A stretch of 64,000 nt of DNA from an uncultured Pseudomonadota bacterium (GTDB lineage Bacteria; Pseudomonadota; Gammaproteobacteria; Burkholderiales; JALYOK01). Both the position numbers and the translations under genes were made by a program. Numbering within the stretch: position 1 is the stretch's first letter; the number at the start of each line of letters is the position of its first letter. Under the pieces are notes generated by a model, which saw only the letters and a list, made by a program, of their open reading frames with translations, was not told where the DNA came from and ran no database searches. Positions 15,482-64,000 of this stretch are shown here, piece by piece. The stretch covers positions 21,495 to 85,494 of the forward strand of contig CAVQPB010000001.1 in the NCBI GenBank assembly GCA_963714525.1, given 5' to 3'.

Positions 15482-15523
15482 CGCCATAAAAGATAAGGAA
15501 CCCGGACTTAGCCTGCAACGAAT

Positions 15524-15729
15524 GGGTAGGGTGGATCAAGCGAAGCGGATCCACCATGGTGATCAACGTCCGCCGTCCTTTGCTAGCGGTTTGGTGGATC
15601 CAGCGCTACGCGCTTTGATCCACCGTCCACGTTTATTAGGACCTCTGCCACGAGCCAAGCACTGGTGCGGCTCCTGGCAAGGCATGCCGCAAGAGGCAAG
15701 CTGGACGTGGCTCCCAGGCATGATGCCTA
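15524..15729. repeat. REP-like compound palindromic element ('gggtagggtggatcaagcg...ggatccacc' family)
   Basis: Two hairpins, ggtggatc...gatccacc, plus a third palindrome ggcatgcc...caggcatg. Related copies sit at 33517 and 35086. Confidence 0.7.
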
Positions 15730-33516: not shown

Positions 33517-33593
33517 GTAGGGTGGATCAAGCGCAGCGGATCCACCAATCGGCGCAAGCTGGATCCGCTGCGCTTGATCCACCCTACCTTTTT
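33517..33593. terminator. REP-like perfect palindrome (same family as 15524 and 35086) followed by a T-run; likely also a transcription terminator
   Basis: gtagggtggatcaagcgcagcggatccacc...ggatccgctgcgcttgatccaccctac is an exact reverse complement pair, followed by TTTTT. Confidence 0.7.
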
Positions 33594-46916: not shown

Positions 46917-47220
46917 CGTTTTCCTTCCAGATGCGTGGTGACGCAATCAATCCGATCATAATTAAGTCTTGACTACGACAAAAAAAGCTCGTAGATTCCG
47001 TCCTGTCACGCTAATGTAGTATTGCATTAGTATTCTTCACGAAAGCGATAAGCCGGATCGCAGCAACAAAAATAATTCTCCCGGTGTAGCGTTAATTTAA
47101 ACTTTTTATACGTCGGGCTGGTGAGTCATCGCGCTGCTCCGATCGTTAGTATTGTCCATCGGGTTCTGGCTGGGGGCGAATGACTATGAAAAGTCATCAA
47201 CTAATAACAGGAGCCCGGCC

Positions 47221-49428
47221 ATGTACAGATTTGTTGTTCTTTCGGCGATTTTTTTCTTCGCCCTTGCCTCTAGCGCACAAACCATTTCCCTTGAGCCGGT
47301 CGTTGCGGGCTTAAAAAGTCCCATCGGCGTTTACCACGCCGGCGATGGCTCCGGCCGTTTGTTCATCCTCGAACAAGGCGGTTACGTCCGAATCTGGAAC
47401 GGCACTCAACTTCTGACCACACCATTTCTCAACATCGACGTCTTGACTAACGGCGGTGGTGAGCAAGGCCTGTTGGGCATTGCGTTTCATCCGAATCACG
47501 AATCTAACGGTTTCTTTTTTGTCAGCTACACGGACTTGTCCGGAAACACGGTGATCGCTCGTTATAGTGTGTCCACCGCGAATCCCAATGTCGCCAACGC
47601 CAGTTCCGGCACAACGATTTTATCTGTTGCGCAGCCTTTCTCTAATCACAACGGTGGTCAAATTCAATTCGGCCCCGATGGTTATCTTTACATCTCCATG
47701 GGGGACGGCGGCGACGCGGGCGATCCGGGAAATCGCGCGCAAAATCTCACCACAATGCTGGGAAAGATGCTGCGTATCGATGTCGATCGTGGCCTGCCTT
47801 ACACCATTCCCGCGACCAACCCGTTCGTCGGCAATACCAATGCCGCGGTCAAAAAAGAAATCTGGGCTTATGGTTTGCGTAACGCCTGGGGCTTTAGCTT
47901 CGATCGCAGCACCGGCGATCTCATCATGGGCGATGTAGGCCAGAATGCCTGGGAAGAAATCGATTTCCAGCCGCGGTCCAGCGCCGGCGGTGAGAACTAC
48001 GGCTGGCGCAAGATGGAAGGTAATAACTGCTTCAATCCCTCGACCAACTGTAATGATGGCACGCTTACCCTACCGATCATCCAGTACAGTCATGCTGCGG
48101 GCAACTGTTCCGTGGCGGGCGGTTATCGCTACCGCGGCAGCCGCTGGGCGACGCTGACGGGCACTTATTTTTACGGCGATTTATGCAGCGGACGCATATG
48201 GGGCGCCAAGCCAAGCGGCGCGACTTGGGTCACCAACCAACTTCTCGACACGGCGCTCACCATCAGCGCATTCGGCGAGGACGAAGCGGGCGAAGTGTAT
48301 GTAGTCGATCTGGATAGCGCGAACGGCGCGGTCTATCGTATTGCGTCTACCAGTAGTACTACGGAAATCATCGTAGATAATTTACCCGCCGGTGGTCGGG
48401 ATGCGACGCGAACATTTACGGGAACATGGTGTAAGTCCGGCGCTGCCGGGTTTTACGGCGCGGATTCCCTCTACAGTTGCGGCAGCGGTATCGACACCTA
48501 TCGCTGGACCCCCAACATTTCCAGCGACCGCGCCTACGACGTCTATGTGCGTTGGACTGCCAACCCGAATCGTTGGACGGCGGTTCCGGTAACAGTCGTT
48601 CACGCAGGGGGAACCACCACGCAGAATTTCAATCAGCGCATTAACGGCGCCGTGTGGACTCTCCTCGGACGGTTTACATTTAATGCGGGAACCGCCGGTT
48701 ATATCGAAACTAACGATAGCGCCGGCCAAGCTAACGCAGACGCAGTACGCCTAGTTCCCGCGTCGGGACCTGCCACGGCGAAATTGACGGTAAGCAAGGC
48801 GGGGAGCGGCAGCGGACGCGTAAGCTCTAATCCCGCCGGTGTTGATTGTGGCGCCGATTGCACGGAGGACTTTTCGCTTAACAGCGTCGTGCAAGTTACG
48901 GCGACACCCGATGCCGGTTCGACGTTTTTCGAATGGGGCGGACCCTGCGCCGGAAATGGCGCTTGCACGATCACCATGAACGATTCGAAATTCCTGGCGG
49001 CCACCTTCCGCGTGACCGATGTCATTGTCGACAACGCCGGTTTGGGGGTACAAGATACAGCCGGTGGACGAACCTTCACGGGTACATGGTGTAGATCGTC
49101 TGGCCTGCTGCCTTTTGGCGCCGAATCCTTGGCGAGTTGCGGCAGTGGGCTCGATACCTATCGGTGGACGCCGAAAGTTCCGAAAGCGGGGGGCTACGGT
49201 GTTTACGTCTGGTGGACCACCCATCCCAATCGCTCGAGCACTGTACCGATCACGATTCAGCATGCCGGTGGCAACACAACCGTGCACGTAGATCAGAAAG
49301 TCAACGGCGGGAAGTGGGTGTTGCTCGGCACTTACAATTTTTCTGCAGGCTCCGTTGGCTCCGTTCAAGTCAGCGATGCAAATGGCCAAGCCTGCGCCGA
49401 TGGGATCAAACTTGTTCCTGCGTTTTAG
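47221..49428 (+). CDS. Secreted PQQ-dependent soluble sugar dehydrogenase-like beta-propeller + divergent InlB-B-repeat + two copies of a ~125-aa C-terminal module
   Basis: RBS AGGAG. Signal MYRFVVLSAIFFFALASSAQ. GSDH-like N-terminal ~400 aa (GLLGIAFHPN..., NHNGGQIQFGPDGYLYIS). B-repeat region ...LTVSKAGSGSGRVSSNPAGVDCGADC...WGGPC. The modules lie at ~48367-48762 and ~49021-49425 (IIVDN...FTGTWC.S...YSCGSG.DTYRWTP...Y.VYVWW...NR...VP.T..HAGG...Q..NGG.W.LLG...F.AG..G......A.GQA.AD..KLVPA). Confidence 0.7.
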   Translation: MYRFVVLSAIFFFALASSAQTISLEPVVAGLKSPIGVYHAGDGSGRLFILEQGGYVRIWNGTQLLTTPFLNIDVLTNGGGEQGLLGIAFHPNHESNGFFFVSYTDLSGNTVIARYSVSTANPNVANASSGTTILSVAQPFSNHNGGQIQFGPDGYLYISMGDGGDAGDPGNRAQNLTTMLGKMLRIDVDRGLPYTIPATNPFVGNTNAAVKKEIWAYGLRNAWGFSFDRSTGDLIMGDVGQNAWEEIDFQPRSSAGGENYGWRKMEGNNCFNPSTNCNDGTLTLPIIQYSHAAGNCSVAGGYRYRGSRWATLTGTYFYGDLCSGRIWGAKPSGATWVTNQLLDTALTISAFGEDEAGEVYVVDLDSANGAVYRIASTSSTTEIIVDNLPAGGRDATRTFTGTWCKSGAAGFYGADSLYSCGSGIDTYRWTPNISSDRAYDVYVRWTANPNRWTAVPVTVVHAGGTTTQNFNQRINGAVWTLLGRFTFNAGTAGYIETNDSAGQANADAVRLVPASGPATAKLTVSKAGSGSGRVSSNPAGVDCGADCTEDFSLNSVVQVTATPDAGSTFFEWGGPCAGNGACTITMNDSKFLAATFRVTDVIVDNAGLGVQDTAGGRTFTGTWCRSSGLLPFGAESLASCGSGLDTYRWTPKVPKAGGYGVYVWWTTHPNRSSTVPITIQHAGGNTTVHVDQKVNGGKWVLLGTYNFSAGSVGSVQVSDANGQACADGIKLVPAF

Positions 49429-49460
49429 GTGAATTGCTTTAATCAAATGAGGAGATCTAA

Positions 49461-51650
49461 ATGCCTGCACTTGTACAGCGCGCGATCCCTAAAGTAATAT
49501 TCCTTGCGCTCACCATAATGTTTTTTGCACAGCAAGCCACTGCACAAGTTGCATCGCCTTTCCCAGTGGCTAATCCGAGCTTCGAAGGAAGTTATGGCGC
49601 GCTTGCGGACTGCAGCAATATCACCGGCGAAGTGGCCATGGGTTGGAGCGATAATACCTGCTGGGACGAGCGCCGCCCAGTGATACGCTATGCACGGGAT
49701 ACGGTCAACCCGCATAGCGGTACCGCATCGCAAAAAATTACCTTGGTGAGCGGCAGCCGCGTGCAGTTTTCTCAGTTTCTGTCGCTGGCTTTTGAGGCAG
49801 GTAAGCGCTATTCGACTTCCGTTTGGATGCGTGCGCAGGCGCCGATGTTCGCGACCATCGTGTTGCGGCAATCAGGTCCGCCGTACACCGGTTACACCAG
49901 CAAGTTAATCCGGCTCTCGACAGCCTGGACGCGGTTTGATCTCGACGGTTTCACCGATAGCACGGACATTGTGCTGCTTGTTATCGCGGAGTCGCCGGGT
50001 ACTTTTTGGATCGACGACGTTGCGATCCAAAGCGAAGCCTCAAACGCTCTCAGTCCCTCGCCGCCGACAACTGCCGTGCCGCGCGCTTATTTCGCCATGC
50101 ATTTCAATCGTCTCGATACGCCTTGGCCGCGGGTAAATAATGCCATCGGTTCGGTCAGGATTTGGGACGCGGGAGAAAATCGTAACGGATCCGGCACGGG
50201 CGCGCAATGGTCGGAAATAAATGCCGTGGCGGGCAGCTTCGATTGGAGCGGCCTCGACGCACGCGTTGCGGCGGCGCTAGCGAATAACGCCGATATCGTT
50301 TACACGTTGGGTGGCCGCACCCCGCAATGGGCTTCCGCCCGGCCCGATGTATTTAGCCCCTATGGGCCTGGTCAATGTGCCGAACCTAAGAGCGACCAAG
50401 TATGGCAAGACTGGGTGCGAACCATCGCCACGCGCTACAAAGGGAAAATCAAACTTTGGGAGGTGTGGAACGAGCCTGATATTGCCGATTTCTACTGCGG
50501 TTCGCCCGACAAACTCGTGGATCTCGCACGGCAAGTCTACGCTATCGTCAAACAAGTCGATCCCACCAACCGCGTATTGTCTCCGGGCTTTAGCGGTTAT
50601 CAAGGCCCAGGGTATCTAGATTATTATTTAGCGAAGGGTGGGGCGCAGTACGCGGATATCTTGAGCTATCACTTCTACGTCGATACGCCCGAGCAAAACG
50701 CGGGAGGACGCATGGCAAATCTCCGGTCCACGATTCAGCGCTATGGTGCGCAAGCCAAACCGCTGTGGAATACCGAACAGGGCTGGATCGAAATTCCGAC
50801 CCCGACGCCGATTCCACAGGCGACGGCTGCGGCCTATGTCGCTCGCACCTACCTGCTGAATTGGGCCTACGGTATCGGGCGTTACTACTACTACACTTGG
50901 GATAATCAATGGAACCGCTTTCAGTTTGTTCAGGCCGATGGCTTGACCTTGACGCCTGCCGGAGTTGCCTACCGTGAAGTGGCGCAGTGGATGACAGGGA
51001 AGGTCATGGAGTCGCTCAGCAGCGATGTGAACGGCACTTATGTTGCAACGTTGCGCGACACCGGTGGCAAAAAGTTGCGTGTGCTGTGGAACCCGCGGCA
51101 AAGTGTGCAATTCGCGCTCCCCGCAAGTTGGGGCGTTAACCAGCAACGAAACCTTGCTGGCGCCCTGGTGAATTTGACCGGAAAGACGAGTGTCGCAATC
51201 GGTGCGTCACCGGTCTTGCTCGAGCAAGCCGCAGCGTCCGGAACCGAAATCATACTGGATAATCTGTTGGCCGGCGGACGTGATGCCACGCGCAGTTCTA
51301 CCGGCACCTGGTGTCAATCTATCGCAGCCAATAAATACGGCGCAACCTCGCTCTACAGTTGTGGCGCCTCGACTGACACCTACCGCTGGACGCCGAACTT
51401 GCCGAAAGCCGGTAGGTATGAAGTCTACGTCTGGTGGGCAAGCAACCTCAATCGCTCGACCCGCGTTCCGATCAGTGTGGTTTCGGCCACGGGATCGGTC
51501 AGTAAAATCGTCGACCAGAAAACCACAGGGGGTAGTTGGGTTCTACACGGCATCTATAGCTTTACCGCGGGTACGACGGGCTACGTGCAAGTGAGCGATG
51601 TCAATGGCCAGGCGGGTGCCGATGCGGTGAAATTCGTAGCGGTACCATAG
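49461..51650 (+). CDS. Secreted glycoside hydrolase (clan GH-A-like, WEVWNEPD acid/base motif) with N-terminal CBM-like domain and the same ~125-aa C-terminal module
   Basis: Signal peptide. PSFEGS...WIDDVAIQ reads as a CBM4/9-like jelly roll. The catalytic (beta/alpha)8 has ...KLWEVWNEPD.... C-terminal module at ~51247-51647 (EIILDNLLAGGRDATRSSTGTWCQS...YEVYVWW...VQVSDVNGQAGADAVKFVAVP). Confidence 0.7.
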   Translation: MPALVQRAIPKVIFLALTIMFFAQQATAQVASPFPVANPSFEGSYGALADCSNITGEVAMGWSDNTCWDERRPVIRYARDTVNPHSGTASQKITLVSGSRVQFSQFLSLAFEAGKRYSTSVWMRAQAPMFATIVLRQSGPPYTGYTSKLIRLSTAWTRFDLDGFTDSTDIVLLVIAESPGTFWIDDVAIQSEASNALSPSPPTTAVPRAYFAMHFNRLDTPWPRVNNAIGSVRIWDAGENRNGSGTGAQWSEINAVAGSFDWSGLDARVAAALANNADIVYTLGGRTPQWASARPDVFSPYGPGQCAEPKSDQVWQDWVRTIATRYKGKIKLWEVWNEPDIADFYCGSPDKLVDLARQVYAIVKQVDPTNRVLSPGFSGYQGPGYLDYYLAKGGAQYADILSYHFYVDTPEQNAGGRMANLRSTIQRYGAQAKPLWNTEQGWIEIPTPTPIPQATAAAYVARTYLLNWAYGIGRYYYYTWDNQWNRFQFVQADGLTLTPAGVAYREVAQWMTGKVMESLSSDVNGTYVATLRDTGGKKLRVLWNPRQSVQFALPASWGVNQQRNLAGALVNLTGKTSVAIGASPVLLEQAAASGTEIILDNLLAGGRDATRSSTGTWCQSIAANKYGATSLYSCGASTDTYRWTPNLPKAGRYEVYVWWASNLNRSTRVPISVVSATGSVSKIVDQKTTGGSWVLHGIYSFTAGTTGYVQVSDVNGQAGADAVKFVAVP

Positions 51651-51720
51651 CGGATAACTCGCAACGATGCCGTGCCGCACATGGTCGGTGTTGCGTTTAG
51701 ATAGTTTTGGGGAGAAAAGG

Positions 51721-51984
51721 ATGAGACGGGCATTTAAGATTTTGTCGAGTATAAGTGCGCTGCTGTTTTTATCGATTCTAACTTTCGGTCACGCTTCAGC
51801 GGTCGAAATTATTCTCGATAATGCCGCCCTAGGCGTGCAAGATACAGTAGGTGGCAGAACGTTCACAGGCAAGTGGTGTACCTCCATCGCGACCGCTAAG
51901 TTTGGCGCGAATTCCTTTTACTCCTGCGGTAGCGGTCCCGATACTTATCGGTGGACACCGAAAATTATCGTTGCCGGATCCTAC
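51721..51984 (+). pseudogene. Fourth member of the module family (signal peptide + module only), truncated after ~55 module residues by the IRt of the transposon
   Basis: MRRAFKILSSISALLFLSILTFGHASA then VEIILDNAALGVQDTVGGRTFTGKWCTS...DTYRWTPK. The reading frame then runs into the transposon IR (tgtcgttttcagaagacg...). Confidence 0.6.
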
Positions 51985-52127
51985 TGTCGTTTTCAGAAGA
52001 CGATTGCACCAATTATCTGGACGTAACGCCCGGAGTGCAGTCAACTCCTGATAGCCAAGTATCAGAAGTCATCTTCACCAATCTCGACTATGCTCAATAC
52101 TCGTGTGCACCAAAGCGAGGTGAGAGC

Positions 52128-52491
52128 ATGGCGTCAGACACTTCATTGATCGCCGAGCAAGGCGTGGCCACACTGCCCGATGCGGCATGGGCGCAAGCCC
52201 GGCAACGGGCGGAATTCATCGGGCCGCTGGCAGCCCTTGATGTGGTCGGGCATGAAGCTGCCGATGCCGCTGCTCACGCGCTTGGTCTGTCTAGGCGGCA
52301 GGTGTATGTCCTGATCCGCCGTGCCCGGCAAGGTTCGGGGCTTGTGACGGACTTGGCTCGCAGCCGATCTGGCGGAGGCAAAGGCAAGGGACGCTTGCCG
52401 GAATCGGTCGAGCGCATCATCCGTGAGCTGCTGCAAAAGCGCTTCCTGACCAAGCAGAAACGCAGCCTGGCGGCGTTCCACCGCGAAGTAG
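52128..52491 (+). pseudogene. tniA: tniA 5' segment (Mu-like DDE transposase), interrupted by an IS21-family insertion
   Basis: MASDTSLIAEQGVATLPDAAWAQARQRAEFIGPLA...LSRRQVYVLIRRARQGSGLV...LTKQKRSLAAFHREV, then the IS end. Confidence 0.8.
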
Positions 52492-52723
52492 TGCGTATTT
52501 CACGCGAACGTGACCGTTGATTTAGCGGTGTGACCGGTCATTTCAAAAATATCGTGACCGGTGAATTCAGAAATAGCGTGACCGGTTATGGATAGATTTT
52601 TGAAATAAAAGCCACGCTGTAGCGTGGCGAATTTTGTTAAGGGGAAAGTGCGAAGGTAATTGAAGATATTTGGTAGCCTGCGCTCCATTTCGAGGAGCGA
52701 GGATGCCCAGTCGGAGAATTACC

Positions 52724-54248
52724 ATGCGCAAGATCAAAGAAGTATTACGGTTACGCTACGCCTGCGGGCTGTCGCTGGAACAAATCGCCCGCGCCCAGAA
52801 TCTGTCCAAAGGCGTGGTCGCCAAATATTTGAAGCGCGCTGCCGCCGCCGGGATCGATGGCGCGATCGCGCAGACCCTGGCTGAAGCCGATTTAGTCGAG
52901 CGGCTCAAACCGAGTAACGACACCCGCGACAGTCGAGTTTCACCGCCCCCGATTTCGCCCAGATTCACCAAGCCCTGAAGCAATCGAGCGTCACGTTGCA
53001 ATTGCTGTGGGAAGACTACCGTGATCAGTGTCCTGGTCGCCCTTACCGCTACACCAGCTTCTGCGTCCAATATCGAATCTTTGCCAAAGCCCTGAAGCGC
53101 TCCATGCGCCAAGTCCACCGCGCCGGTGAGAAACTATTCGTTGATTACGGTGGCCAGACTCTTTCGGTCATTGACCCGGCCAGCGGCGAAATCCGCCGCG
53201 CCCAAGTGTTCGTCGCGGTGCTCGGCGCCTCGAATTACACCTATGCCGAAGCCACCTGGACCCAAACCGCCGCCGACTGGCTAAGCGCCCATTGCAGCGC
53301 ATTGGCGTATTTCGGCGGGTGTCCCGAGATAGTGGTGCCGGGCAATGCGCGCGCCTTGATTGCTGATCCGGATCGCTACGAACCTTCGCTGGGTCTCGCG
53401 CACCAAGAATGGGCGGCACACTATGGTTGCGCTGTCATTCCGGCGCGCCCGTACCGGCCGCAAGATAAAGCCAAAGTCGAAGTGGGTGTACAAGTGGTGG
53501 AGCGCTGGATTCTGGCGCGACTGCGAGCACGGCAATGTTTTAGCCTGGCCGAACTCAATGCCGCAATTTGGATGTTGTTGACCGACCTGAACCAACGCCC
53601 GTTAAGAAACTGCCGGGCAGTCGCGCCAGCGCCTTCGCTACCCTCGACCAACCGGTGCTCAAACCGTTGCCTGTAACCGTGTTTGAATTAGCGCGCTGGA
53701 AGAAAGCCCGGGTGTCAATTGACTACCACGTTGATATCGAACGTCACTATTACAGCGTGCCGCATCAATTAGTCGGCGAGTTGGTCGAGGTGCGCATCAC
53801 CGCCCGCATGATCGAATGTTTGCATCATGGCAAACGCGTCGCCAGTCATGTCAGAAGTGCCTTGCCCGGTCGCCACACCACCCAGGCGGATCACATGCCC
53901 AAGTCTCACCGCGCGCACTTGGAATGGACGCCGGGACGGTTGCTCAATTGGGCGTTGTCCATCGGTCCGGCTACTCGCGATGTCGCTCAATACCAGCTCG
54001 AATCTAAACCCCATCCGGAAATGGGTTATCGCGCCTGCTTGGGACTGATGCGCTTGGCGCGTCAATACAATCCGGCACGGTTGGAATTGGCGTGTGTACG
54101 GGCGCGGGCTTTACGGGCGATGACGTATCGCTCGGTCGCGGCGATTCTGAAGGCCGGCCTGGAGCAACAACCCTTGCCGCCACCCCGGCAAATTGATCTG
54201 GCGTTACCCGTGCACGCCAATGTGCGCGGCTCGAAGTATTACCACTAA
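52724..54248 (+). CDS. istA: IS21-family transposase IstA (two apparent frameshifts, ~52935 and ~53600)
   Basis: MRKIKEVLRLRYACGLSLEQIARAQNLSKGVV (HTH), then QLLWEDYRDQCPGRPYRYTSFCVQY...DYGG... (DDE), then a C-terminal segment. The three ORF-track pieces are contiguous in homology. The first shift is a missing g in ccggat. Confidence 0.7.
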
Positions 54249-54263
54249 CCTGAAAGGAATCTC

Positions 54264-54998
54264 ATGCTGAATCAACATACCTTGCAGTTATTAACCCAAC
54301 TCAAACTCGATGGTATGGCACGCGCCTTCGAGGAACAATCCAGCCAGACCCATGCCGCCAGTTTATCGTTCGAAGAACGCTTTGGTCTCCTGGTGGATCG
54401 GGAATTCACGCATCGCGATACGAAACGGGTTGACCGATTATTGAAGCAGGCAAAACTAAAAGTCGCGGGGGCGTGTGTAGAAGATATCGATTACCGCGCC
54501 GGCCGCGGCTTGGATAAACGGGCGATGGCCAGCTTATCGACGTGTGATTGGATCCGCCATAGGCACAGCATATTAATTGCCGGGGCGACCGGTTGTGGCA
54601 AGACGTGGCTGGCCTGTGCGTTCGGCCAGCAGGCGTGTCGTCAGGGCTTCTCGGTGCTGTATGTTCGCGTACCGCGGTTGTTCGAGGAGTTGCGTATCGC
54701 CCACGGCGACGGCAGCTTTACCCGTAAGCTCGCCGCCTTGGCGCGCACCGATGTGTTGCTGTTGGACGATTGGGGTGTGAATCCGCTGACGCAGCCGGAG
54801 CGTGCCGATCTATTGGAAATCCTGGATGATCGGGTGGCAACGCGTTCAACGATCATCACCAGTCAACTCCCGGTCGAGCATTGGCATGAGTATTTGGCCG
54901 ATCCGACGTTGGCCGACGCTATCCTGGATCGGATCGTGCATCAAAGTCATAAATTGAAACTCAAAGGCGAGTCGCTTAGAAAGCAAGAATCCGCATGA
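54264..54998 (+). CDS. istB: IS21-family helper ATPase IstB
   Basis: 244 aa. Walker A GATGCGKT and the DnaC-like AAA+ fold. Confidence 0.85.
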
Positions 54999-55136
54999 TT
55001 CCGGAAACGGCAACAACGCGCTTCGCGCACCGGTGCGTGACCGGTTAGTGTAAGTGTATCGCCTTCGCTGTCCCATCAGCACCGGTCACGTTATTTCTGA
55101 AATGATCGGTCACGTTCGCTGAAATACGCAAAGTAG

Positions 55137-56450
55137 CCGGCTTGCAAAACGCAAAAGCTGCGGGTGCCGGCGCGCAACACCATTGCCTTACGGATCGCCA
55201 ACCTCGACCCGCTCAAAACCGCTCGCCACCGGGAAGGGCAAGATGCCGCCCGCTGCCTGCAAGGTGACGGCGGGGAGCCTACTGCCGTGACCGCGCCACT
55301 CGAACAGGTGCAGATCGACCATACGGTCATTGACCTGATCGTGGTCGATGAGCGCGACCGGAAACCGATTGGCCGCCCGTACCTGACCGTCGGCCATCGA
55401 CGTGTTTACAGCGCTGCGTGCTCGGCATGGTGGTCACGCTGGAAGCGCCGTCGGCCGTCTCGGTCGGGCTGTGCCTGCGCGCATACTGCCTGCGACAAGC
55501 GTCCGTGGCTGGAAGGGCTCGGATGTAGAAGTGGAGTGGGCGAAGAGCGGCAAACCTAAGCAGCTCTACTGGACAACGCAGCCGAGTTCAAGAGCGAGGC
55601 ACTGCGCCGGGCTGCGAGCAGCATGGCACGGTTGGACTATCGCCCACCTGGGCAGCCGCACTACGGCGGCATCGTAGAACGGATCATCGGCACGGCGATG
55701 CAGATGATCCACGATGAATTGCCGGGGACGACCTTCTCCAATCCCGACCAGCGCGGGGCTTACGATTCCGAGAAGAAGGCCGCCCTGACGCTGCGTGAGC
55801 TGGAGCGCTGGCTGACATTGGCGGTGGGCACCTATCACGGCTCTGTGCACAACGGCTTGCTCCAGCCACCAGCGGCACGCTGGTCCGAGGCCATGGCGCG
55901 TGTCGGTGTGCCGGCGGTCATCACCCGCGCCACGGCTTTCCTGGTCGATTTCCTGCCGGTCATCCGCCGCACCCTGACCCGCACGGGCTTCGTCATCGAC
56001 CACATCCACTATTACGCCGATGCGCTCAAGCCGTGGATCGCGCGGCGTGACCGCTGGCCGGCCTTCCTGATCCGCCGCGACCCGCGCGACATCAGCCGCA
56101 TCTGGGTACTGGAACCGGAAGGTCGGCACTATCTGGAAATTCCCTACCGTACCTTGTCGCACCCTGCTGCCACCCTGTGGGAACAACGGCAGGCGCTGGC
56201 GAAATTGCGGCAGCAAGGGCGCGAACAGGTAGATGAATCGGCGCTGTTCCGCATGATCGGGCAGATGCGCGAGATCGTGAGCGGCGCACAGAAGGCGACG
56301 CGCAAGGCGCGGCGCGACGCGGATCGGCGCCGGCACCTCAAAGTGTCGGTTCCACCGGCCAAGCCAACTCCGCCGGAAACGGACGTTGCTAACCCGCAGG
56401 TGGACAACCTGCCACCGGCCAAACCGTTCGACCAGATCGAGGAGTGGTAG
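55137..56450 (+). pseudogene. tniA: tniA 3' segment; additionally carries several frame changes between ~55330 and 55620
   Basis: ...AQKLRVPARNTIALRIANLDPLKTA...VQIDHTVIDLIVVDERDRKPIGRPYLT [shift] ...CDKRPWLEGLG [shift] VEVEW...[shift]...LDYRPPGQPHYGGIVERIIGT...PAKPFDQIEEW. These pieces are spread over three frames (ORFs 55164, 55402, 55623). Confidence 0.75.
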
Positions 56451-56452
56451 CC

Positions 56453-57360
56453 GTGGACGAATATCCCATCATCGACCTGTCCCACCTCCTGCCGGCAGCA
56501 CAGGGCCTGGCTCGGCTGCCGGCGGATGAGCGCATCCAGCGTCTTCGCGCCGACCGCTGGATCGGCTATCCGCGTGCGGTCGAGGCATTGAACCGGCTGG
56601 AAACCCTGTATGCGTGGCCGAACAAGCAGCGCATGCCCAACCTGCTGCTGGTCGGCCCGACCAACAACGGCAAGTCGATGATCATCGAGAAATTCCGGCG
56701 CACGCATCCGGCCAGCTCAGATGCCGACCAGGAACACATTCCGGTGCTGGTCGTGCAGATGCCGTCCGAACCTTCGGTGATCCGCTTCTACGTCGCGCTG
56801 CTCGCCGCGATGGGCGCACCATTGCGCCCGCGCCCACGGCTGCCGGAAATGGAGCAACTGGCGCTGGCCTTGTTGCGCAAGGTCGGCGTGCGCATGCTGG
56901 TGATCGACGAGCTGCACAACGTCTTGGCCGGAACAGCGTCAACCGCCGGGAATTCCTCAACCTGCTGCGCTTCCTCGGCAACGAGCTGCGCATCCCGCTG
57001 GTCGGCGTCGGCACGCGCGACGCCTACCTGGCCATCCGCTCGGATGACCAGTTGGAAAACCGCTTCGAACCCATGATGCTGCCGGTGTGGGAGGCCAACG
57101 ACGATTGCTGCTCACTGCTGGCCAGCTTCGCCGCTTCGCTACCACTGCGACGGCCGTCCACGATCGCGACGCAGGACATGGCCCGCTATCTGCTCACCCG
57201 CAGCGAGGGCACTATCGGCGAACTGGCGCACCTGCTGATGGAAGCCGCCATCGCCGCCGTGGAGAGCGGCGAGGAAGCGATCAACCACCGCACGCTCAGC
57301 ATGGCCGATTACACCGGCCCCAGCGAGCGGCGACGCCAGTTCGAGCGGGAACTGATGTGA
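56453..57360 (+). CDS. tniB: TniB AAA+ transposition ATPase, with an apparent -1 frameshift near 56935 (ggaaacagc read as ggaacagc)
   Basis: ...LLVGPTNNGKS (Walker A)...VIDELHNVLAG, then in the next frame NSVNRREFLNLLRFLGNELRIPLVGVGT...RRQFERELM. Confidence 0.8.
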
Positions 57361-58574
57361 AGCCGGCACCGCGCTGGCCACTGCATCCTGCCCCCAGAGA
57401 AGGCGAAGCCCTGTCCTCATGGCTCAATCGTGTCGCCGCCTGCTACCACATGGACTTGCACGACCTACTGGAACACGATCTCGGTCGCGGCCACGTCGAT
57501 GACCTGGATACCGCACCGTCGCTGTCGCTGCTGACGGTTCTCTCGCAGCGCAGCAGCATCGAGCAGGACCGGCTGCGGTGCATGAGCTTTGCCGGCTGGG
57601 TGCCATGGCTGCTGGATAGCCTGAATGATCGGATTCCAGATGCCTTGGAAACCTATGCGTTCCAGTTCTCGGTACTGCTGCCGAAATTCCGCCGTAAGAC
57701 GAGATCGATCACAAGCTGGTGTGCCTGGCTGCCCAGCCGGCCAATCCACCGCGCCTGCCCACTTTGCCTGAACGATCCGACGAATCAAGCCATATTGCTT
57801 GCATGGAAACTGCCGTTGATGCTGAGCTGCCCACAACATGGTTGCTGGCTCGAATTCTATTGGGGCGTACCAGGGCGGCTTCTCGGCTGGGAGAACACCG
57901 ACACTTCGCCGCGCGCGGTCACCGAAGCGATTGCGGCGATGGATCGACGTACCTGGCAAGCGCTGACAACAGGATACGTCGAGTTGCCGCGCAGGCGCAT
58001 CCATGCTGGCCTGTGGTTCCGGCTACTGCGCACATTGCTCGACGAGTTGAACACCCCACTCTCTCTGTGCGGAACGTTCGCGCACAGTATCCGCTATGTC
58101 TGGGAACGTTGCGGACATCCGCTGCGAGCGGGGCAAAGTCTGTGGCGTCCCTACGAAATTTTGCCCCTAGAGGTCCAGTTGCAAATGCTGGAAGCAGCGG
58201 CCACTGCCATCGACCTGATCGAATCGAAGGTGTTGAGTCCCGGCGGAAAACAGGCGGCATTGTTCTTGTCGGAACCGCAGACCGCGTTCACCGACGGCAT
58301 GCCGGTGGTTGAGCGAAAGGAGGAACCAGTCAATTATTGGCAGAAAGCGATCAAAGCAATTGAAGAGGCCATCGTCGAGGCGCGGCACAACCCCGTGACG
58401 GCCCGCTCCCTGTTTGCGCTGACCTCCTATGGTCAGCGCGACCCCGAGTCTTTGGAGCGCTTGCGCATCACGTTTGCCAATGAGGGCATCCCCCCGGAAT
58501 TTCTGTCATATTATGAGCCTGACGGCCCCTTTACATGTCGTAGACTAAATGACGGGTTAAGTGACAGTTTTTGA
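57357..58574 (+). CDS. tniQ: TniQ transposition target-selection protein
   Basis: GTG start overlapping the tniB stop (ATGTGA). VKPAPRWPLHPAPREGEALSSWLNRVAACYHMDL... has high similarity to Tn5053 TniQ as recalled. Confidence 0.8.
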   Translation: MKPAPRWPLHPAPREGEALSSWLNRVAACYHMDLHDLLEHDLGRGHVDDLDTAPSLSLLTVLSQRSSIEQDRLRCMSFAGWVPWLLDSLNDRIPDALETYAFQFSVLLPKFRRKTRSITSWCAWLPSRPIHRACPLCLNDPTNQAILLAWKLPLMLSCPQHGCWLEFYWGVPGRLLGWENTDTSPRAVTEAIAAMDRRTWQALTTGYVELPRRRIHAGLWFRLLRTLLDELNTPLSLCGTFAHSIRYVWERCGHPLRAGQSLWRPYEILPLEVQLQMLEAAATAIDLIESKVLSPGGKQAALFLSEPQTAFTDGMPVVERKEEPVNYWQKAIKAIEEAIVEARHNPVTARSLFALTSYGQRDPESLERLRITFANEGIPPEFLSYYEPDGPFTCRRLNDGLSDSF

Positions 58575-58634
58575 CGACTAGAACTTTCTGGCCCACACTG
58601 TCACATAATCGAACGTATATGTGACAGGTGCGAC
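58575..58634 (+). promoter_or_regulatory. res (resolution) site region upstream of tniR
   Basis: Palindromic tgtcacataatcgaacgtatatgtgaca between tniQ and tniR, in the position of the Tn5053-family res. Confidence 0.55.
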
Positions 58635-59249
58635 ATGCTGATTGGCTACATGCGGGTATCGAAAGCGGACGGCTCCCAGGCGACTGACTTGCAGCGCGAT
58701 GCGCTGGTTGCCGCCGGAGTCGATCCGATACATTTTTATGAAGACCAAGCATCCGGCAAGCGCGAGGACCGGCCAGGCTTGGTGAGCTGCCTGAAGGCGC
58801 TCCGACCAGGCGACACGCTGGTGGTGTGGAAACTGGACCGGCTCGGGCGTGACTTGCGCCACCTCATCAACACAGTGCACGACCTTACCGCACGCGGCAT
58901 TGGCCTCAAGGTATTGACCGGCCACGGCGCGGCCATCGACACCACGACGGCCGCCGGTAAGCTGGTTTTCGGCATCTTTGCGGCGTTGGCAGAGTTCGAG
59001 CGCGAGTTGATCGCCGAGCGCACCATTGCAGGCTTGGCGTCGGCACGGGCGCGCGGTCGAAAAGGCGGCCGGCCGTTCAAAATGACCGCCGCCAAACTGC
59101 GTCTGGCGATGGCGGCGATGGGGCAGCCGGAAACCAAGGTCGGCGATCTATGTCGGGAACTCGGCATCACCCGGCAGACTCTGTACCGGCATATTTCACC
59201 CAAGGGGGACTTGCGCCCCGATGGAGCGAAGTTGCTGTCGCGAACCTAG
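58635..59249 (+). CDS. tniR: Serine recombinase/resolvase TniR
   Basis: MLIGYMRVSKADGSQATDLQRDAL... with the catalytic Ser and a C-terminal HTH. Near-identical to TniR of Tn5053 as recalled. Confidence 0.9.
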   Translation: MLIGYMRVSKADGSQATDLQRDALVAAGVDPIHFYEDQASGKREDRPGLVSCLKALRPGDTLVVWKLDRLGRDLRHLINTVHDLTARGIGLKVLTGHGAAIDTTTAAGKLVFGIFAALAEFERELIAERTIAGLASARARGRKGGRPFKMTAAKLRLAMAAMGQPETKVGDLCRELGITRQTLYRHISPKGDLRPDGAKLLSRT

Positions 59250-59283
59250 CCATCATCATCCACAAGAAATCATAAGGCCGACC

Positions 59284-59532
59284 ATGCCGTCATGTACTTT
59301 TTGCGAACGAGACAACCTTGACCTAATTGCGGAGAATTCGCTTGCATTCGCCGTCAGAGATCGATTTCCCGTGCGAAGGCTCCATTCGCTTGTTCTACCA
59401 AAGCGGCACCTTGGTAATACCTTCGATCTGACGGAAGCAGAACTGGTGGCGATTTTCGATCTCGCAGGCCAAGTGCGAGCGCTGATCCTCATGGAGGATT
59501 CTAGCGTTGGTAATTTCAACTTCGCTAAATGA
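59284..59532 (+). pseudogene. HIT-family protein fragment (N-terminal part only; histidine-triad motif missing)
   Basis: MPSCTFCERDNLDLIAENSLAFAVRDRFPVRRLHSLVLPKRHLGNTFDLTEAEL...; it ends before HxHxHxx. Confidence 0.55.
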
Positions 59533-59621
59533 GCCCATCCCCTCGAAAAGGTAAAACGAGCGGATTTTCCCTCTGAGACAGAGGATTTGAGGCCAAAAAC
59601 GTAAACCCGCTTCAGGCCTTA

Positions 59622-59796
59622 GCGGGTCTTCGGGTTGCGACCTAACCGTGGTGTGCGGTGAATGACGGTAAAACTACCGAATCCCCTGATCTCAATCCGA
59701 TGCCCACGCACCAGCGCGTTATTCATCGTATCCAAGATGGCCAAAACGGCAGCCTCAGTATCCTTCTGCGTCAACTGACTGAACCGTTCGGCTAGG
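59622..59796 (-). pseudogene. ihfB/HU-family (integration host factor beta-like) gene fragment, truncated at both ends
   Basis: Reverse-strand translation gives ...LAERFSQLTQKDTEAAVLAILDTMNNALVRGHRIEIRGFGSFTVIHRTPRLGRNPKT, then an immediate stop. It lacks a start codon, and its 5' end abuts the IS5-family end. Confidence 0.5.
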
Positions 59797-59848
59797 GAAA
59801 CTCTGCAAAACCTGCCAACGGTTTTGAGGTGAGAAACGTTGTATATCG

Positions 59849-60250
59849 ATGAAACAAACCACGCTCGCCACTGCTGGATTCGGACTGGTCACCAAGCGCA
59901 CGCGCAAACGCGTGTTCCTCGACGAGATGAACCTGGTGGTTCCGTGGACCGAATTGGTGGCATTGATTACGCCCCATTCGCCAGTGGCTGGAGCCAAAGG
60001 CGGACGCCCGCCATTTGCAGTTGAAACCATGCTGCGCATTCATTTCTTGCAGCAGTGGTTTGGACTGAGTGATCCGGCTATGGAAGAGGCGCTGCACGAT
60101 GTGTCGCTGTATTGCGAGTTCGCGCACCTTGACCCGGGCGCCAGCCGCTTGCCTGATGAATCGACCATTCTGCGGTTTCGCCACTTGCTCGAACAGTATG
60201 GTCTGAGCATGCAGATCATGGCGGCCAGCTATGGAACTCATAGCGAGTGA
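59849..60250 (+). pseudogene. IS5-family transposase, N-terminal ~130 aa only (truncated where lysR begins)
   Basis: MKQTTLATAGFGLVTKRTRKRVFLDEMNLVVPWTELVALITPHSP...ETMLRIHFLQQWFGLSDPAMEEALHDVSLY...DESTILRFRHLLEQYGLSMQI. Confidence 0.65.
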
Positions 60251-61146
60251 TGGTTGTTCAAGGCGGCACAGGCTTTGCGTACGGTGTCTGCGAGAACGCC
60301 CTGCAGGGGGTGCGGAGCTGCGATGTCCGGAAGAAGCATATTCACCTGGTAACCGATGGCAACGGTAAGCGGCCGCACTACTAGGTCCGGTCCGCTGAGT
60401 TCCAGTGCGGTGAGCGGGTTTACGATGGCAACGCCCAGGCCCTGACGCACCATGGCGCAGACGGCCACTGCGCTCGTGGTTTCAAGCAGGGTTGCGCGAT
60501 GTACTTTAGCGTCCTCGAACATCGCATCAATGGCGGTTCGATACGGGTCGCCAACCGCGAGACTGATGAAGCGCTCGCCTGTAAAGTCGCGTGGTTGCAG
60601 TCGCGCCTTGCGGCACAGGCTGTGATCACGTGGCAAAACGGCCACTTCATTGACTTTCAGCAAGGGCTGCAAGGCAACTCCAGCAGGTGCCTCTTGGGTT
60701 TCACTAAGTCCCAGGTCAAAACGCTGTTCACTCATGGCTTGCTCCAGCCAGGGCGACTCTATGGGATGCACGCTGACTCCTAGTTCAGGATGTGCATGTG
60801 AGAGATATACCAGTGCGCGGGGTACCAAGGCATGGGCCAATGCCGGCAAACACGCAATGCGCAAGCGACCTGTCACTTGCGTGCGCAATTCGCTGGCGCG
60901 CGCTGCGATCTGTTCCAAGCCTATAAACGAGCGTTCTACTTCCTGCATCAGCGCAAGTGCCCGCACGGTAGGGCGTAATCGGCCCCGCACCCGGTCAAAA
61001 AGGTTAAACCCCATTAACTGCTCCAGACGCCCCAGCTCGCGACTCAAAGTGGGCTGGCTTGACGCGCACGCGTCAGCTGCACGCCCCAGGTTGCCGTGCA
61101 GCATGATGGCGCGAAACATCGTCAGCTGGCGATGGGTTAGATTCAT
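60238..61146 (-). CDS. lysR: LysR-family regulator, LysR (lysA activator)-like
   Basis: Divergent from lysA. ...SQPTLSRELGRLEQLMGFNLFDRVRGRLRPT... aligns position for position with E. coli LysR as recalled. Confidence 0.75.
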   Translation of the reverse strand: MNLTHRQLTMFRAIMLHGNLGRAADACASSQPTLSRELGRLEQLMGFNLFDRVRGRLRPTVRALALMQEVERSFIGLEQIAARASELRTQVTGRLRIACLPALAHALVPRALVYLSHAHPELGVSVHPIESPWLEQAMSEQRFDLGLSETQEAPAGVALQPLLKVNEVAVLPRDHSLCRKARLQPRDFTGERFISLAVGDPYRTAIDAMFEDAKVHRATLLETTSAVAVCAMVRQGLGVAIVNPLTALELSGPDLVVRPLTVAIGYQVNMLLPDIAAPHPLQGVLADTVRKACAALNNHHSL

Positions 61147-61215
61147 ATCAATATTGAATAGCTATACAACAAGAATAGCATTGATTGAATTGACTATGAA
61201 GGGGATCATCCACCC

Positions 61216-62466
61216 ATGAACCCTTTTACTCCCGCTACCATCGCTCCTTTGGCCCAGCAGTTCGGTACCCCGCTGTGGATCTATGATGCCGCCACCATTA
61301 CGCGCCAGATTGCCGCTCTGCGGTTGTTTGACGTAGTGCGTTTCGCTCAGAAAGCCAACTCCAATACACACATCCTTCGCCTCATGAAGCGACAGGGCGC
61401 AGTGGTGGACTCGGTGTCTTTGGGTGAAATCGAACGCGCGTTGGCTGGTGGTTTTACGCCGGGCTTGCACAACGGGCACGCAGACATCGTGTTCACGGCC
61501 GATCTGCTGGACCGCGCTACGCTTGCGCGCGTGGTGGAACTCAATATTCCCGTGAACTGCGGCTCCATGGACATGCTGGACCAATTGGGTGCGGTCAACC
61601 CGGGGCACCCGGTGTGGCTACGCATCAACCCAGGTTTCGGGCATGGCCATTCCAAGAAAACAAATACCGGTGGCGAGCATAGCAAGCATGGCATCTGGCA
61701 TGGCGACCTAGTACGCGCCTGCGAAAAGATCAAGTCCAACGGCCTGGCCTTGCAGGGCCTGCACATGCACATCGGCTCAGGCGTGGACTACGCGCACTTG
61801 CAGGAAGTGTGCGGTGCCATGCTGAAGCTGGTAGAGGTAGTGAATGCGCAGGGTTTGGACCTGCACGCCATCTCCGCGGGCGGCGGTCTGTCCGTTCCCT
61901 ACCAGGCCGGTGAACCCACGATTGATACGGCGCACTACTTTTCATTATGGGATGCAGCGCGCCATGCCGTGGAACAACTGCTGGAGCACCCAGTGAAACT
62001 GGAAATAGAACCGGGCCGCTATTTAATGGCCGAGTCCGGCGTGCTGGTCACCGAGGTACGCGCCACGAAGCAACAGGGCGCCAACCATTTTGTGATGGTG
62101 GACGCCGGCTTCAGTGATCTGGCTCGCCCGGCCCTATACGGCGCCTACCACGGCATGGAGTTAATCCGCTCTGATGGCACAGCGGTTAATGGCCTGCAGT
62201 TTGACACGGTGGTTGCCGGACCTCTGTGCGAGTCGGGAGATGTGTTTACGCAGGGAGACGGTGGCGTGGTGTTGCACCGGTCCTTGCCGCAGGCGCAGGT
62301 GGGAGATCTGCTGGTGTTGCACGACACCGGTGCGTATGGCGCCTCCATGTCATCGAACTACAACGCGCGCCCGCTGATTGCCGAAGTGCTGATGGAAAAT
62401 GGTGAGCCCCGGCTTATTCGACGAAGGCAGACGGTGGCTGAGCTGCTCGCGCTGGAGGCGGTGTAA
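61216..62466 (+). CDS. lysA: Diaminopimelate decarboxylase
   Basis: ...FDVVRFAQKANSNTHILRLM...VDSVSLGEIERALA...NTGGEHSKHGIW...HMHIGSGVDYAHL...CESGDVFTQ...HDTGAYGASMSSNYN... This is ~65-70% identical to E. coli LysA by recalled alignment. PLP-fold type III. Confidence 0.9.
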   Translation: MNPFTPATIAPLAQQFGTPLWIYDAATITRQIAALRLFDVVRFAQKANSNTHILRLMKRQGAVVDSVSLGEIERALAGGFTPGLHNGHADIVFTADLLDRATLARVVELNIPVNCGSMDMLDQLGAVNPGHPVWLRINPGFGHGHSKKTNTGGEHSKHGIWHGDLVRACEKIKSNGLALQGLHMHIGSGVDYAHLQEVCGAMLKLVEVVNAQGLDLHAISAGGGLSVPYQAGEPTIDTAHYFSLWDAARHAVEQLLEHPVKLEIEPGRYLMAESGVLVTEVRATKQQGANHFVMVDAGFSDLARPALYGAYHGMELIRSDGTAVNGLQFDTVVAGPLCESGDVFTQGDGGVVLHRSLPQAQVGDLLVLHDTGAYGASMSSNYNARPLIAEVLMENGEPRLIRRRQTVAELLALEAV

Positions 62467-63374
62467 GGCAGCACACAATGGCCTTAGCAACGTAAATCTG
62501 AGGCGGCGGTAGAACGTTTTGACTGATTGCGACATGGTTCTGGCGCCACCAGTGCGAACCACACACAACCTGCTCTACTCCTTGCACACACTGCGCTAGT
62601 CCCGGTGCGGCGCAGGTAGATAAGGCCACCCCTCACGTTGGCGCCGTGGCTTTCATCCACCGGTCCGGCTCCAGCCCGAACGGGCATACGCAATTCAAAT
62701 GTGGGTCGATGGAGTTACGGACAACCGCAAGACTTCCAGCTACCTGCCGTTCGCGACCATCTCATTACGCTGCCTTGCGGGTTTACATTCTTCTCGATAC
62801 CAGACCTTCATTTCGGCTGCTTGAATAGTGGAGTTCAATCAAAAAGGTCCCCCTGCCAGGCTGCGTGGCGTTGCTCCAGAACACCGAGTCGGCATATCTT
62901 GCAGCCAAGGCCCCCAGGTCAATGCTCTGCTCATCGTCGCTGAATTCGAACGACCCAAACATGTTCACGTGCTGCCACGCTACCGGCGAAATCCCTTGAA
63001 TGAATGCAATAGCATCCAGATCCCCGGCCGCCACCTTCTATTCGTATAGCGTTTGGTATTCCTATCCACCAATGGAAGCACCAAAGTGCGGAATTACACT
63101 GAGTTGACCACTGGATTGCATCTGAGCTGACCAGACAAAATCATCAACTTGACCGGTCCAAGTCGAACCGCCGCAGTAGGCCAGTGAACTCAATCGATCG
63201 TATAGATGAAGAGCCTTGGCTCACATGACGATCTGAATAAGTTCAAGTGCGGGGACGAATACAAGCCCGACGACTACGTCGGCAACTGTTTCGTACCCGC
63301 ACCCATCTTCACATGCGGCATTGTTAGTGCAGCCCACTTCTAAACTTACGTGCAGTCGTCTTCTGAAAACGACC

Positions 63375-64000
63375 AGCACGGCACAAAGAAGCTATCGATA
63401 TCGTCTTGGGTTACCGCATCCAACGCAGGAGGATTCCAGCGCGGCTTTTGATCTTTTTCTACGATCAGTGCCCGCACGCCTTCGATGAAATCGCCTTGGT
63501 CAAAGCAGGCGTGCACCATGTTGAGTTCCATCCGGAAGCAATCGGCCAAAGACATTCTGCGGCCGCGATGCAATTGTTCGAGGGTGACGGACATCATCAA
63601 CGGCGATCGTTTTTCGAGACCGGCTAAGGTTTGGGACGCCCAATCGGTCAAGCTGGTCTGCGATTCGTTCTTAAGCGACGCGACGATCTCAGGCAACCTC
63701 GGTTCGCTAAAATGAATATCGATCGCATCCGTGTAGGGCGCCAACACGGCAGGGGTCAAAGGTTCACTGGCCAGCGTGTTAAGCGCCATTTCGATATCCC
63801 GCTCGTGATCGTCGGACCATTCGATATCCTTGAGACGATCGTCGAGGGCGACGACCGAGTAAGTATCCAGATAAATATCGCCAAGCCCGACGGCGAGAAT
63901 ATCCGGCGCTTTGATGTCTTTGCCAGTGATTCCAAGATAAATCCCCATCGCTCCCTCGAGACGCGACAAAAAATAACTAGCGCCGACATCGGGGAATAAT
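63375..64000 (-). CDS. Enoyl-CoA hydratase/isomerase-family protein (3-hydroxyisobutyryl-CoA hydrolase-like), partial: N-terminus beyond window end, last ~10 codons replaced by the transposon IRi
   Basis: ...MGIYLGITGKDIKAPDILAVGLGDIYL... and the C-terminal HIBCH-like region ...ALDAVTQDDIDSFF then run into IR-encoded VPCWSFSEDDCT*. Confidence 0.65.

Follow-up and report, generated by a model that had tools for sequence, protein, structure and literature searches.

A lysR-lysA transposon of the Tn5053/Tn402 family, probably defective, in place of 1,819 bp of native DNA in an uncultured Burkholderiales bacterium

We analysed a stretch of 64,000 nucleotides from an uncultured bacterium of the Burkholderiales (assembly GCA_963714525.1, contig CAVQPB010000001.1, positions 21,495 to 85,494 of the forward strand). 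This whole stretch is called the window, and all positions without another label refer to it. Between 51985 and 63374 it holds a transposon of the Tn5053/Tn402 family, the "res-site hunters". The copy is of a type that carries lysR-lysA as cargo and is also found on plasmid pOXA-198. Judged from its sequence, it is very probably defective and now immobile. The element has replaced exactly 1,819 bp of native DNA, which comprise codons 89-672 of a secreted-protein gene, a 31-bp spacer and the last 10 codons of a hydratase gene. We hold one explanation for the whole locus with good confidence. It would combine an insertion at CCTAC, a microhomology deletion that came later or was coupled to the insertion, a hybrid origin of the element, and decay of its transposition genes.

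The features of the element and of the two interrupted host genes are the following (IR, inverted repeat; IS, insertion sequence; ORF, open reading frame; HTH, helix-turn-helix).

51721-51984, plus strand: 5' remnant (codons 1-88) of the 672-aa secreted gene, whose frame runs 13 codons into the IR and stops at 52026
51985-52009, plus strand: IRt, the complete 25-bp IR next to tniA, identical to the IRt of pOXA-198 and of pPUV-6; the host sequence ends exactly at 51984
52128-52491, plus strand: 5' part of the tniA pseudogene (HTH region), upstream of the IS
52492-55130, plus strand: IS21-family IS inside tniA, 2,639 bp, with TG…CA ends and a 6-bp duplication, AAGTAG, at 52486-52491 and 55131-55136
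55137-56450, plus strand: 3' part of the tniA pseudogene (DDE core and Mu-transposase C-terminal domain), placed by alignment with pPUV-6 and pOXA-198
56444-57360, plus strand: tniB pseudogene, with one -1 frameshift at 56932
57357-58574, plus strand: tniQ, an open frame of 405 codons
58575-58634, no strand: tniQ-tniR spacer (res region) of 60 bp, with the 28-bp palindrome TGTCACATAATCGAACGTATATGTGACA at 58599-58626; it aligns with pPUV-6 and pOXA-198
58635-59249, plus strand: tniR, serine resolvase, an intact ORF of 204 aa with 99-100% DNA identity to pOXA-198
59285-60221, plus strand: cargo debris, with a truncated HIT-domain ORF (to 59532) and an N-terminal IS5-family transposase fragment (59849-60221); absent from pOXA-198
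60238-61146, minus strand: lysR-family regulator, an intact ORF of 302 aa
61216-62466, plus strand: lysA (diaminopimelate decarboxylase), an intact ORF of 416 aa
62549-63302, no strand: cargo debris, including a C-terminal Tn3-family transposase remnant (62783-63034, minus strand); absent from pOXA-198 and partly shared with contigs L090 and L092
63350-63373, minus strand: IRo (IRi), 24 of 25 bases, with the terminal nucleotide missing
63370-63373, no strand: CGAC microhomology, 4 nt common to the IRo tip and the native hydratase gene, at the right-hand deletion junction
63374-64000, minus strand: 3' part of the ECH_2/HIBCH-like enoyl-CoA hydratase gene, native up to codon 350 and cut off by the end of the window

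The native form of the locus comes from contigs that lack the element. Two of them, L085 and L086, were reached via the cluster of the intact hydratase protein (member P0124) and derive from two other sequencing runs. Both match the window at 63370-64000 with 99.7% identity. On the left flank, L085 matches 50379-51984 at 99.6% and L086 matches 50004-51984 at 99.4%. All these matches are gap-free. Between them, L085 and L086 carry the 1,819 bp that the window lacks. A short contig of a third run (L002) matches 63370-64000 at 99.8% and then diverges, which confirms the native right side. It encodes a full-length hydratase relative of 360 aa (P0001), to which the hydratase fragment of the window is 100% identical. 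A preliminary description of this DNA, made from the window by itself, had considered that the insertion came with a deletion, and the empty-site alleles from three samples bear this out. It had also proposed a comparison with relatives free of the element; L085 and L086 allow both the pre-insertion locus and the 1,819 bp of deleted DNA to be reconstructed.

The native gene row of L085 and L086 consists of a 3-hydroxyisobutyrate-dehydrogenase-like gene, the hydratase gene, the convergent 672-aa gene and the next gene. According to Pfam, the product of the 672-aa gene has a Golvesin_C module and a Pel9A-like beta-helix, together with a signal peptide. Its first 88 residues are exactly the truncated ORF of the window. 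In the native locus, 31 bp separate the 3' end of this gene from the stop codon of the hydratase. The hydratase natively ends in …CWSPPQHPLSVLR (360 aa). It now ends in …CWSFSEDDCT inside the IR (357 aa, stop codon at 63346-63348), with its last 10 codons lost. The loss of about 10 codons from an enoyl-CoA hydratase/HIBCH-like gene had been predicted beforehand, as had the convergence of two genes that both lack their 3' ends; the left one proves to be the single 672-aa gene that converges on the hydratase in the empty-site alleles. On the left, the IR does cut a gene of a module family (signal peptide plus Golvesin_C, after residue 88, …IIVAGSY). The cut lies 61 residues into the module and not at the previously given position of about 55. 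In a more distant metagenome-assembled genome (MAG), L007, a single gene of 849 aa has the same architecture and is likewise convergent on the hydratase.

A scan of the genome collection with the hydratase returned no genome of the same species (best match, 85%), and only L007 and another MAG, L004, were informative, at the protein level. Downstream synteny differs in metagenome contig L083 (82% identical). Exact-protein look-ups with the 729-aa left neighbour and with the junction-spanning proteins P0121 and P0125 found nothing on record.

The comparison with the empty site resolves both junctions at the base level. The native order is …GGATCCTAC / GATACTT…GGGGCGG / CGACCAGCAC, and the window reads …GGATCCTAC / TGTCGTTTTC…CTGAAAA / CGACCAGCAC. 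At the left, the last host base directly precedes the outermost base of a complete IRt (51984/51985). This is what a transposition junction should look like, and we take it to be the original, precise one. The right junction is different. There, the native sequence is …GCTGGGGCGG / CGACCAGCAC, compared with …CTTCTGAAAA / CGACCAGCAC in the window. The IRo tip of all relatives ends in …GAAAACGACA, whereas that of the window reads …GAAAACGAC and continues into host sequence. In the minus-strand reading, the outermost base of the right IR is G instead of the T of every relative, and this G is part of the hydratase gene. By contrast, pOXA-198 (L001), L088, L090 and L092 all retain the terminal A of IRo. 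The IRt ends of L001 and pPUV-6 (L084) retain it as well. So, the "intact-looking" IRs of the preliminary description do not hold for the right end, which has lost its terminal base.

The tip base of this IR is missing, and the crossover falls inside the shared CGAC. For these reasons, the right junction is the signature of an illegitimate, microhomology-mediated deletion and not of strand transfer. The probability of an overlap of at least 4 nt at a random junction is about 0.016. The similarity to pOXA-198 and L088 continues for 10 bp past the right IR, which raised the possibility that part of a res target had been carried along with the element. This was rejected, since the empty-site alleles have these bases as part of their native hydratase gene.

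The assignment to the family is based on several features. The 25-mer TGTCGTTTTCAGAAGACGATTGCAC occurs at 51985-52009 (plus strand) without mismatches and at 63350-63374 (minus strand) with 2 mismatches. No further match with up to 3 mismatches is present in the 64-kb window, where 0 are expected by chance. IRt has 25 of 25 bases, and IRo has 24 of 25 with a host base at its tip. Within the segment bounded by the IRs, Pfam finds TniB (in two frames), TniQ, Resolvase, Mu-transpos_C in the remains of the Mu-type DDE transposase TniA, and fragments with a HIT domain and with the DUF772 domain of an IS5-family transposase. The genes tniA, tniB and tniQ stand in a row, with 86-99% DNA identity to family members. 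On the 3' side of tniQ there is a Resolvase/HTH_7 ORF of 204 aa (tniR), preceded by a predicted res site. The 25-mer matches and Pfam thus agree with the earlier view that Tn402/Tn5053-type 25-bp IRs at both ends bound tniA-tniB-tniQ-res-tniR and lysR-lysA. The cargo indeed comes without a mer operon or an integron.

Members of the Tn5053/Tn402 family have 25-bp IRs, produce 5-bp repeats and target res sites, and their insertion outside res is inefficient (PMC7765201). The present copy lacks two of these hallmarks. The flanking pentamers are CCTAC on the left and AGCAC on the right, so the 5-bp target duplication is absent, as already described. The 1,819-bp deletion relative to the empty-site alleles explains its loss. 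In addition, the element does not sit at or beside a res site with its resolvase. The native target is within the 672-aa chromosomal gene, and the 5.5-kb empty-site locus contains no gene for a resolvase. The element consequently satisfies the structural definition of the family and departs from it in two points of behaviour, of which the missed res target is rare but has been described before. Members of the family transpose replicatively, via a cointegrate that TniR resolves; the present copy is predicted to be immobile. Nothing here falls outside known kinds. The locus represents a new defective, hybrid member of the Tn5053/Tn402 family.

We identified the damage in the transposition genes by a three-way alignment of the window with pOXA-198 and pPUV-6, the latter with an intact tniA of 559 aa. 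The tniA gene has eight indels that are specific to the window: 55137 (-2, at the IS site), 55392, 55410, 55477 and 55520 (+1 each), 55569 and 55610 (-1 each), and 55629 (-2). The tniB gene has one (-1, at 56932), and tniQ and tniR have zero window-specific indels in this alignment. The preliminary description implied an intact tniA-tniB-tniQ-res-tniR series. This needs correction, with an IS21-family insertion and eight indels in tniA and one indel in tniB. Both transposase genes are, by their reading frames, dead. With a clipped IRo and without functional tniA and tniB, the element would be unable to move by itself. The frames still open in the element are lysR, lysA, tniQ and tniR.

Seven of the tniA indels are packed in 240 bp (55392-55629). 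Their sub-groups add up to +3, 0 and -3, but the frame is still broken by a stop codon. None of the seven lies in a homopolymer, and the host DNA on both sides of the element aligns with the independent alleles without gaps.

The interruption of tniA by the IS was revealed by the alignment of the window with pOXA-198. This IS21-family element has terminal inverted repeats of 30 bp and multiple GTGACCGGT subterminal repeats. Its istA gene is spread over three frames (HTH, 52670-52978; rve, 52996-53676; Mu-transpos_C_2, 53568-54248). The istB gene is intact (54264-54998; Pfam IstB_IS21, 289 bits). The family assignment of the IS thus has istA with HTH and DDE regions (although frameshifted), istB, IRs with subterminal motifs and a short target duplication. 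We found no second copy of this IS in the window and no exact match to its end in the scanned metagenome collection. An IS21-family insertion in a tni module with lost mobility has a parallel in clinical class 1 integrons, for example In2 with IS1326.

The element is composed of two parts of different affinity. The preliminary description had proposed a BLAST search against family references. Megablast against plasmids retrieved thousands of Tn402/Tn5053-type tni modules at about 86% DNA identity, and two Pseudomonas aeruginosa plasmids were far closer, with pOXA-198 as the closest. Compared with pPUV-6, the window shows 93-99% identity from IRt to about 58520 (the end of tniQ), and then 68-81%. 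Compared with pOXA-198, the identity is 79-96% up to about 58520 and 94-100% from there rightward, over tniR and the cargo. The change from pPUV-6-like to pOXA-198-like sequence occurs at the palindrome (58599-58626) shortly before the start of tniR. These similarities indicate that the element is a hybrid, with a pPUV-6-like IRt-tniA-tniB-tniQ part and a pOXA-198-like part from tniR rightward. The modules were probably exchanged at res, by resolvase-mediated or homologous recombination, since the switch falls where the res site of the family lies.

The cargo combines the lysR-lysA pair with mobile-element debris. The two debris segments (937 bp and 754 bp) were considered as insertions. This was rejected, as they have no flanking target duplications and share only "cca". 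They look like ancestral cargo that pOXA-198 has lost. The metagenome scan gave five more contigs that match the cargo or the IRo-proximal region, each with different internal losses. The lysR-lysA pair (60222-62548) is also present at 91% identity on 13.4-kb plasmids of the Acinetobacter baumannii ATCC 17978 type, outside any tni context examined. Because of this occurrence, the pair is a travelling module in its own right. A host ORF of 416 aa (26014-27264) was examined as a possible lysA paralogue, and it is unrelated to the lysA of the cargo. About 140 bp past the stop of the tnpA remnant, at 62590-62640, the reverse complement reads GGGGTGGCCTTATCTACC…, possibly a remnant of a Tn3-family terminal repeat. 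The segment 62598-62696 has a 74% match to DNA adjoining IS91-family transposase genes on Acidovorax and Pseudomonas plasmids.

The following history would account for the locus. The hybrid lysR-lysA element would have inserted at CCTAC, at codon 88 of the secreted gene, which is an atypical, non-res chromosomal site. A deletion of about 1.82 kb, following the insertion or coupled with it, would have run from the IRo tip to the CGAC in hydratase codon 350-351. It would have taken the outermost base of IRo, the CCTAC copy on the right, codons 89-672, the 31-bp spacer and the last 10 hydratase codons. Such a deletion explains the missing target duplication and both gene truncations. The IS21-family element would have entered tniA, with its own 6-bp duplication, and frameshifts would have built up in tniA and tniB.

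Several points weigh against this history. The order of insertion, deletion and decay is not readable from one allele. The junction-spanning proteins P0121 and P0125 are known only from the genome record of the window, and the junctions are known from the assembly alone. The tniA indels are oddly clustered, which may reflect a local assembly or consensus error or a real mutational patch. Nine frameshifting indels and a degenerate IS are also more decay than a flank divergence of 0.3-0.6% suggests. Much of this decay may predate the arrival of the element, because the flanks are so little diverged and free of indels. The element may even have been dead on arrival and moved by transposition proteins supplied in trans. 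Supply in trans is documented for class 1 integrons (PMC7765201). Finally, the deletion ends exactly 1 nt inside the IR, an unlikely spot for an unrelated, spontaneous deletion. For this reason, insertion and deletion are perhaps mechanistically linked.

This link can be worded in two ways. As part or variant of the history above, the deletion would be a footprint of the transposase. TniA, acting in trans or before its decay, would have nicked the 3' end of IRo without a completed strand transfer; resection of one base and sealing 1.8 kb away at the 4-nt microhomology would have followed. We offer this tentatively, as a possibility rather than an expectation. If true, the locus would be a natural example of abortive transposition of a Tn5053-family element at a non-res site, leading to an adjacent deletion and a self-immobilised element. 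A stricter version places everything in a single aberrant step. IRt would have joined normally at CCTAC, while the nicked IRo stayed unjoined, was trimmed by one base and was sealed at CGAC 1.8 kb away; alternatively, a later nick would have triggered the deletion. The family does transpose replicatively by nicking 3' ends (PMC7765201). Such a step would suit the perfect left end, the 4-nt microhomology and a deletion that ends exactly 1 nt inside IRo, at the cleavage site of the transposase. However, with tniA dead in this copy, the transposase must have come in trans or acted before the decay. In addition, the deleted segment has 13 CGAC sites, and the choice of the one used is left unexplained. 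This version, which differs from the favoured history solely in coupling both steps, is rather unlikely.

The remaining alternatives depart further from the insertion at CCTAC with a deletion at the right. Homologous recombination between two element copies, inserted in the secreted gene and in the hydratase gene respectively, would delete the DNA between them and classically leaves flanks that do not match and no target duplication, as seen here. The preliminary description had raised this possibility. Nevertheless, the empty-site alleles show the two flanks in one locus, with only 1,819 bp between them, so two rare non-res insertions at 1.8 kb from each other would be needed. The right junction, with its missing tip base and its 4-nt overlap with the host, is not of the transposition type, and the window has no other IR or segment of the element. 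We regard this explanation as scarcely credible. Intramolecular replicative transposition is known to generate adjacent deletions with perfect ends and no duplication. On this basis, the element could first have entered the hydratase end (AGCAC); the IRo tip would later have mutated from A to C, and a transposase-mediated adjacent deletion that spared IRt would have created the left junction. The perfect IRt agrees with it. However, four of the five native bases at this point would have to coincide with the IR tip (a chance of about 1 in 256), and a point mutation would have to turn the fifth into exactly the native base. An allele with the element at the hydratase end and an AGCAC duplication is absent, which, together with the microhomology, also speaks against this order of events. 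We consider it very improbable. An artefact is a different kind of concern. The source is apparently a MAG, the junction proteins are in one record only, and the element is common in other organisms. An assembler could then have bridged two chromosomal contig ends via a mobile element located elsewhere, for example on a plasmid. But assemblers join via common sequence, of which host and element have 0 nt at the left junction and 4 nt at the right one. The left junction coincides exactly with the end of the IR, which is what a real transposition would give. The flanks are two sides of a single locus with 1.8 kb between them, and they are indel-free against independent alleles. We consider an artefact of this kind highly improbable.

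The host locus (window 47152-51650; L007 11084-15933) is a row of secreted genes with Golvesin_C modules. Their architectures are GSDH plus Golvesin_C, glycosyl hydrolase plus Golvesin_C, and Golvesin_C plus beta-helix. The number of Golvesin_C modules varies, with one in the 672-aa gene (L085) and two in the 849-aa gene (L007). L004, with a hydratase 85% identical, has a transposon-free deletion at the same place (1905-2176), in which a Golvesin_C module is fused to the last ~24 codons of the beta-helix. This host region seems prone to deletion, or it is misassembled in L004. The first 28 nt of L085 (1-28) match the window at 33517-33544 (minus strand) and 33560-33587 (plus strand) with 100% identity, and at 15523-15553 with 93.5%. 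They represent a short dispersed repeat of the host, which forms an inverted pair and is REP-like.

Beyond annotation, the significance of the locus is small. It is a transposon scar of an ordinary kind, and its reconstruction to the single base is now possible. It explains the damage to two host genes: the secreted Golvesin_C/beta-helix protein is knocked out, and the C-terminal tail of the hydratase is replaced. It also places the lysR-lysA transposon of the Tn5053 family, found otherwise on a clinical Pseudomonas plasmid and on metagenome contigs, in the chromosome of an uncultured environmental lineage similar to Burkholderiales. Likewise, it provides a worked example, at the level of base pairs, of module shuffling at res and of decay via IS insertion, frameshifts and end-clipping. 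In terms of mechanism, only one point is of broader interest: the deletion ends 1 nt inside the tip of the repeat, and this position may record a breakage triggered by the transposase.

Among known systems, the closest relative of the element is the transposon of the Pseudomonas aeruginosa plasmid pOXA-198 (NZ_MG958650.1, L001 2781-9826), for which no name turned up in our literature searches. Both have the same IRt, IRo and gene order (tniA-tniB-tniQ-res-tniR-lysR-lysA), without mer or an integron. Their tniR and downstream regions are 94-100% identical, and lysR-lysA is 97.6% identical. In contrast, the IRs of the pOXA-198 copy are complete, with a 5-bp duplication (GGCGC) and a target associated with the Tn3 family. 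Neither the IS21 insertion nor the debris segments 59285-60221 and 62549-63302 are present in it, and from tniA to tniQ its identity to the window is only 79-96%. The tniA gene of this copy (L001 2831-4408) is frameshifted near its 3' end, with …EPEGQHYLKSPTVP instead of …EPEGQHYLEIPYRT, and it may also depend on transposition proteins supplied in trans. Its IRt end is 60 bp from the start of a Tn3-family tnpA. The elements of L001, L088 and L092 abut the same sequence (…GGCACGGGAATCAAGGCATT…) with an offset of 1-2 nt (L001 9826-9850; L088 ~766-790; L092, minus strand). This target is probably a shared hot spot of res type, and these relatives behave as res hunters.

The tni module of the Pseudomonas aeruginosa megaplasmid pPUV-6 (NZ_MT732184.1, L084 6001-10633) is 93-99% identical to the window from IRt through tniQ, and it offers the nearest intact tniA, tniB and tniQ. 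Beyond res, its tniR and its cargo, an efflux/ABC transporter cluster, are unrelated to those of the window (68-81% identity). The inserted IS resembles the IS21 elements of the IS408/ISRme9 type in istA (HTH, rve and Mu-transposase C-terminal domain) plus istB, TG…CA ends, subterminal repeats and a 6-bp duplication. However, it has only about 64-66% DNA identity to any plasmid-borne copy, and its istA is broken in three frames. The prototypes of the res-site hunters are Tn5053, Tn402 and Tn502, and class 1 integrons are defective derivatives of this family. With the Tn5053/Tn402 prototypes, the element shares the tniABQ-res-tniR module, the 25-bp IRs and the DNA identity of about 86% seen with many tni modules. 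It differs from them in its cargo, which is lysR-lysA plus mobile-element debris and not mer or intI1, in a target within a chromosomal gene without a nearby res or resolvase, in the missing 5-bp duplication, and in an IRo clipped by one base.

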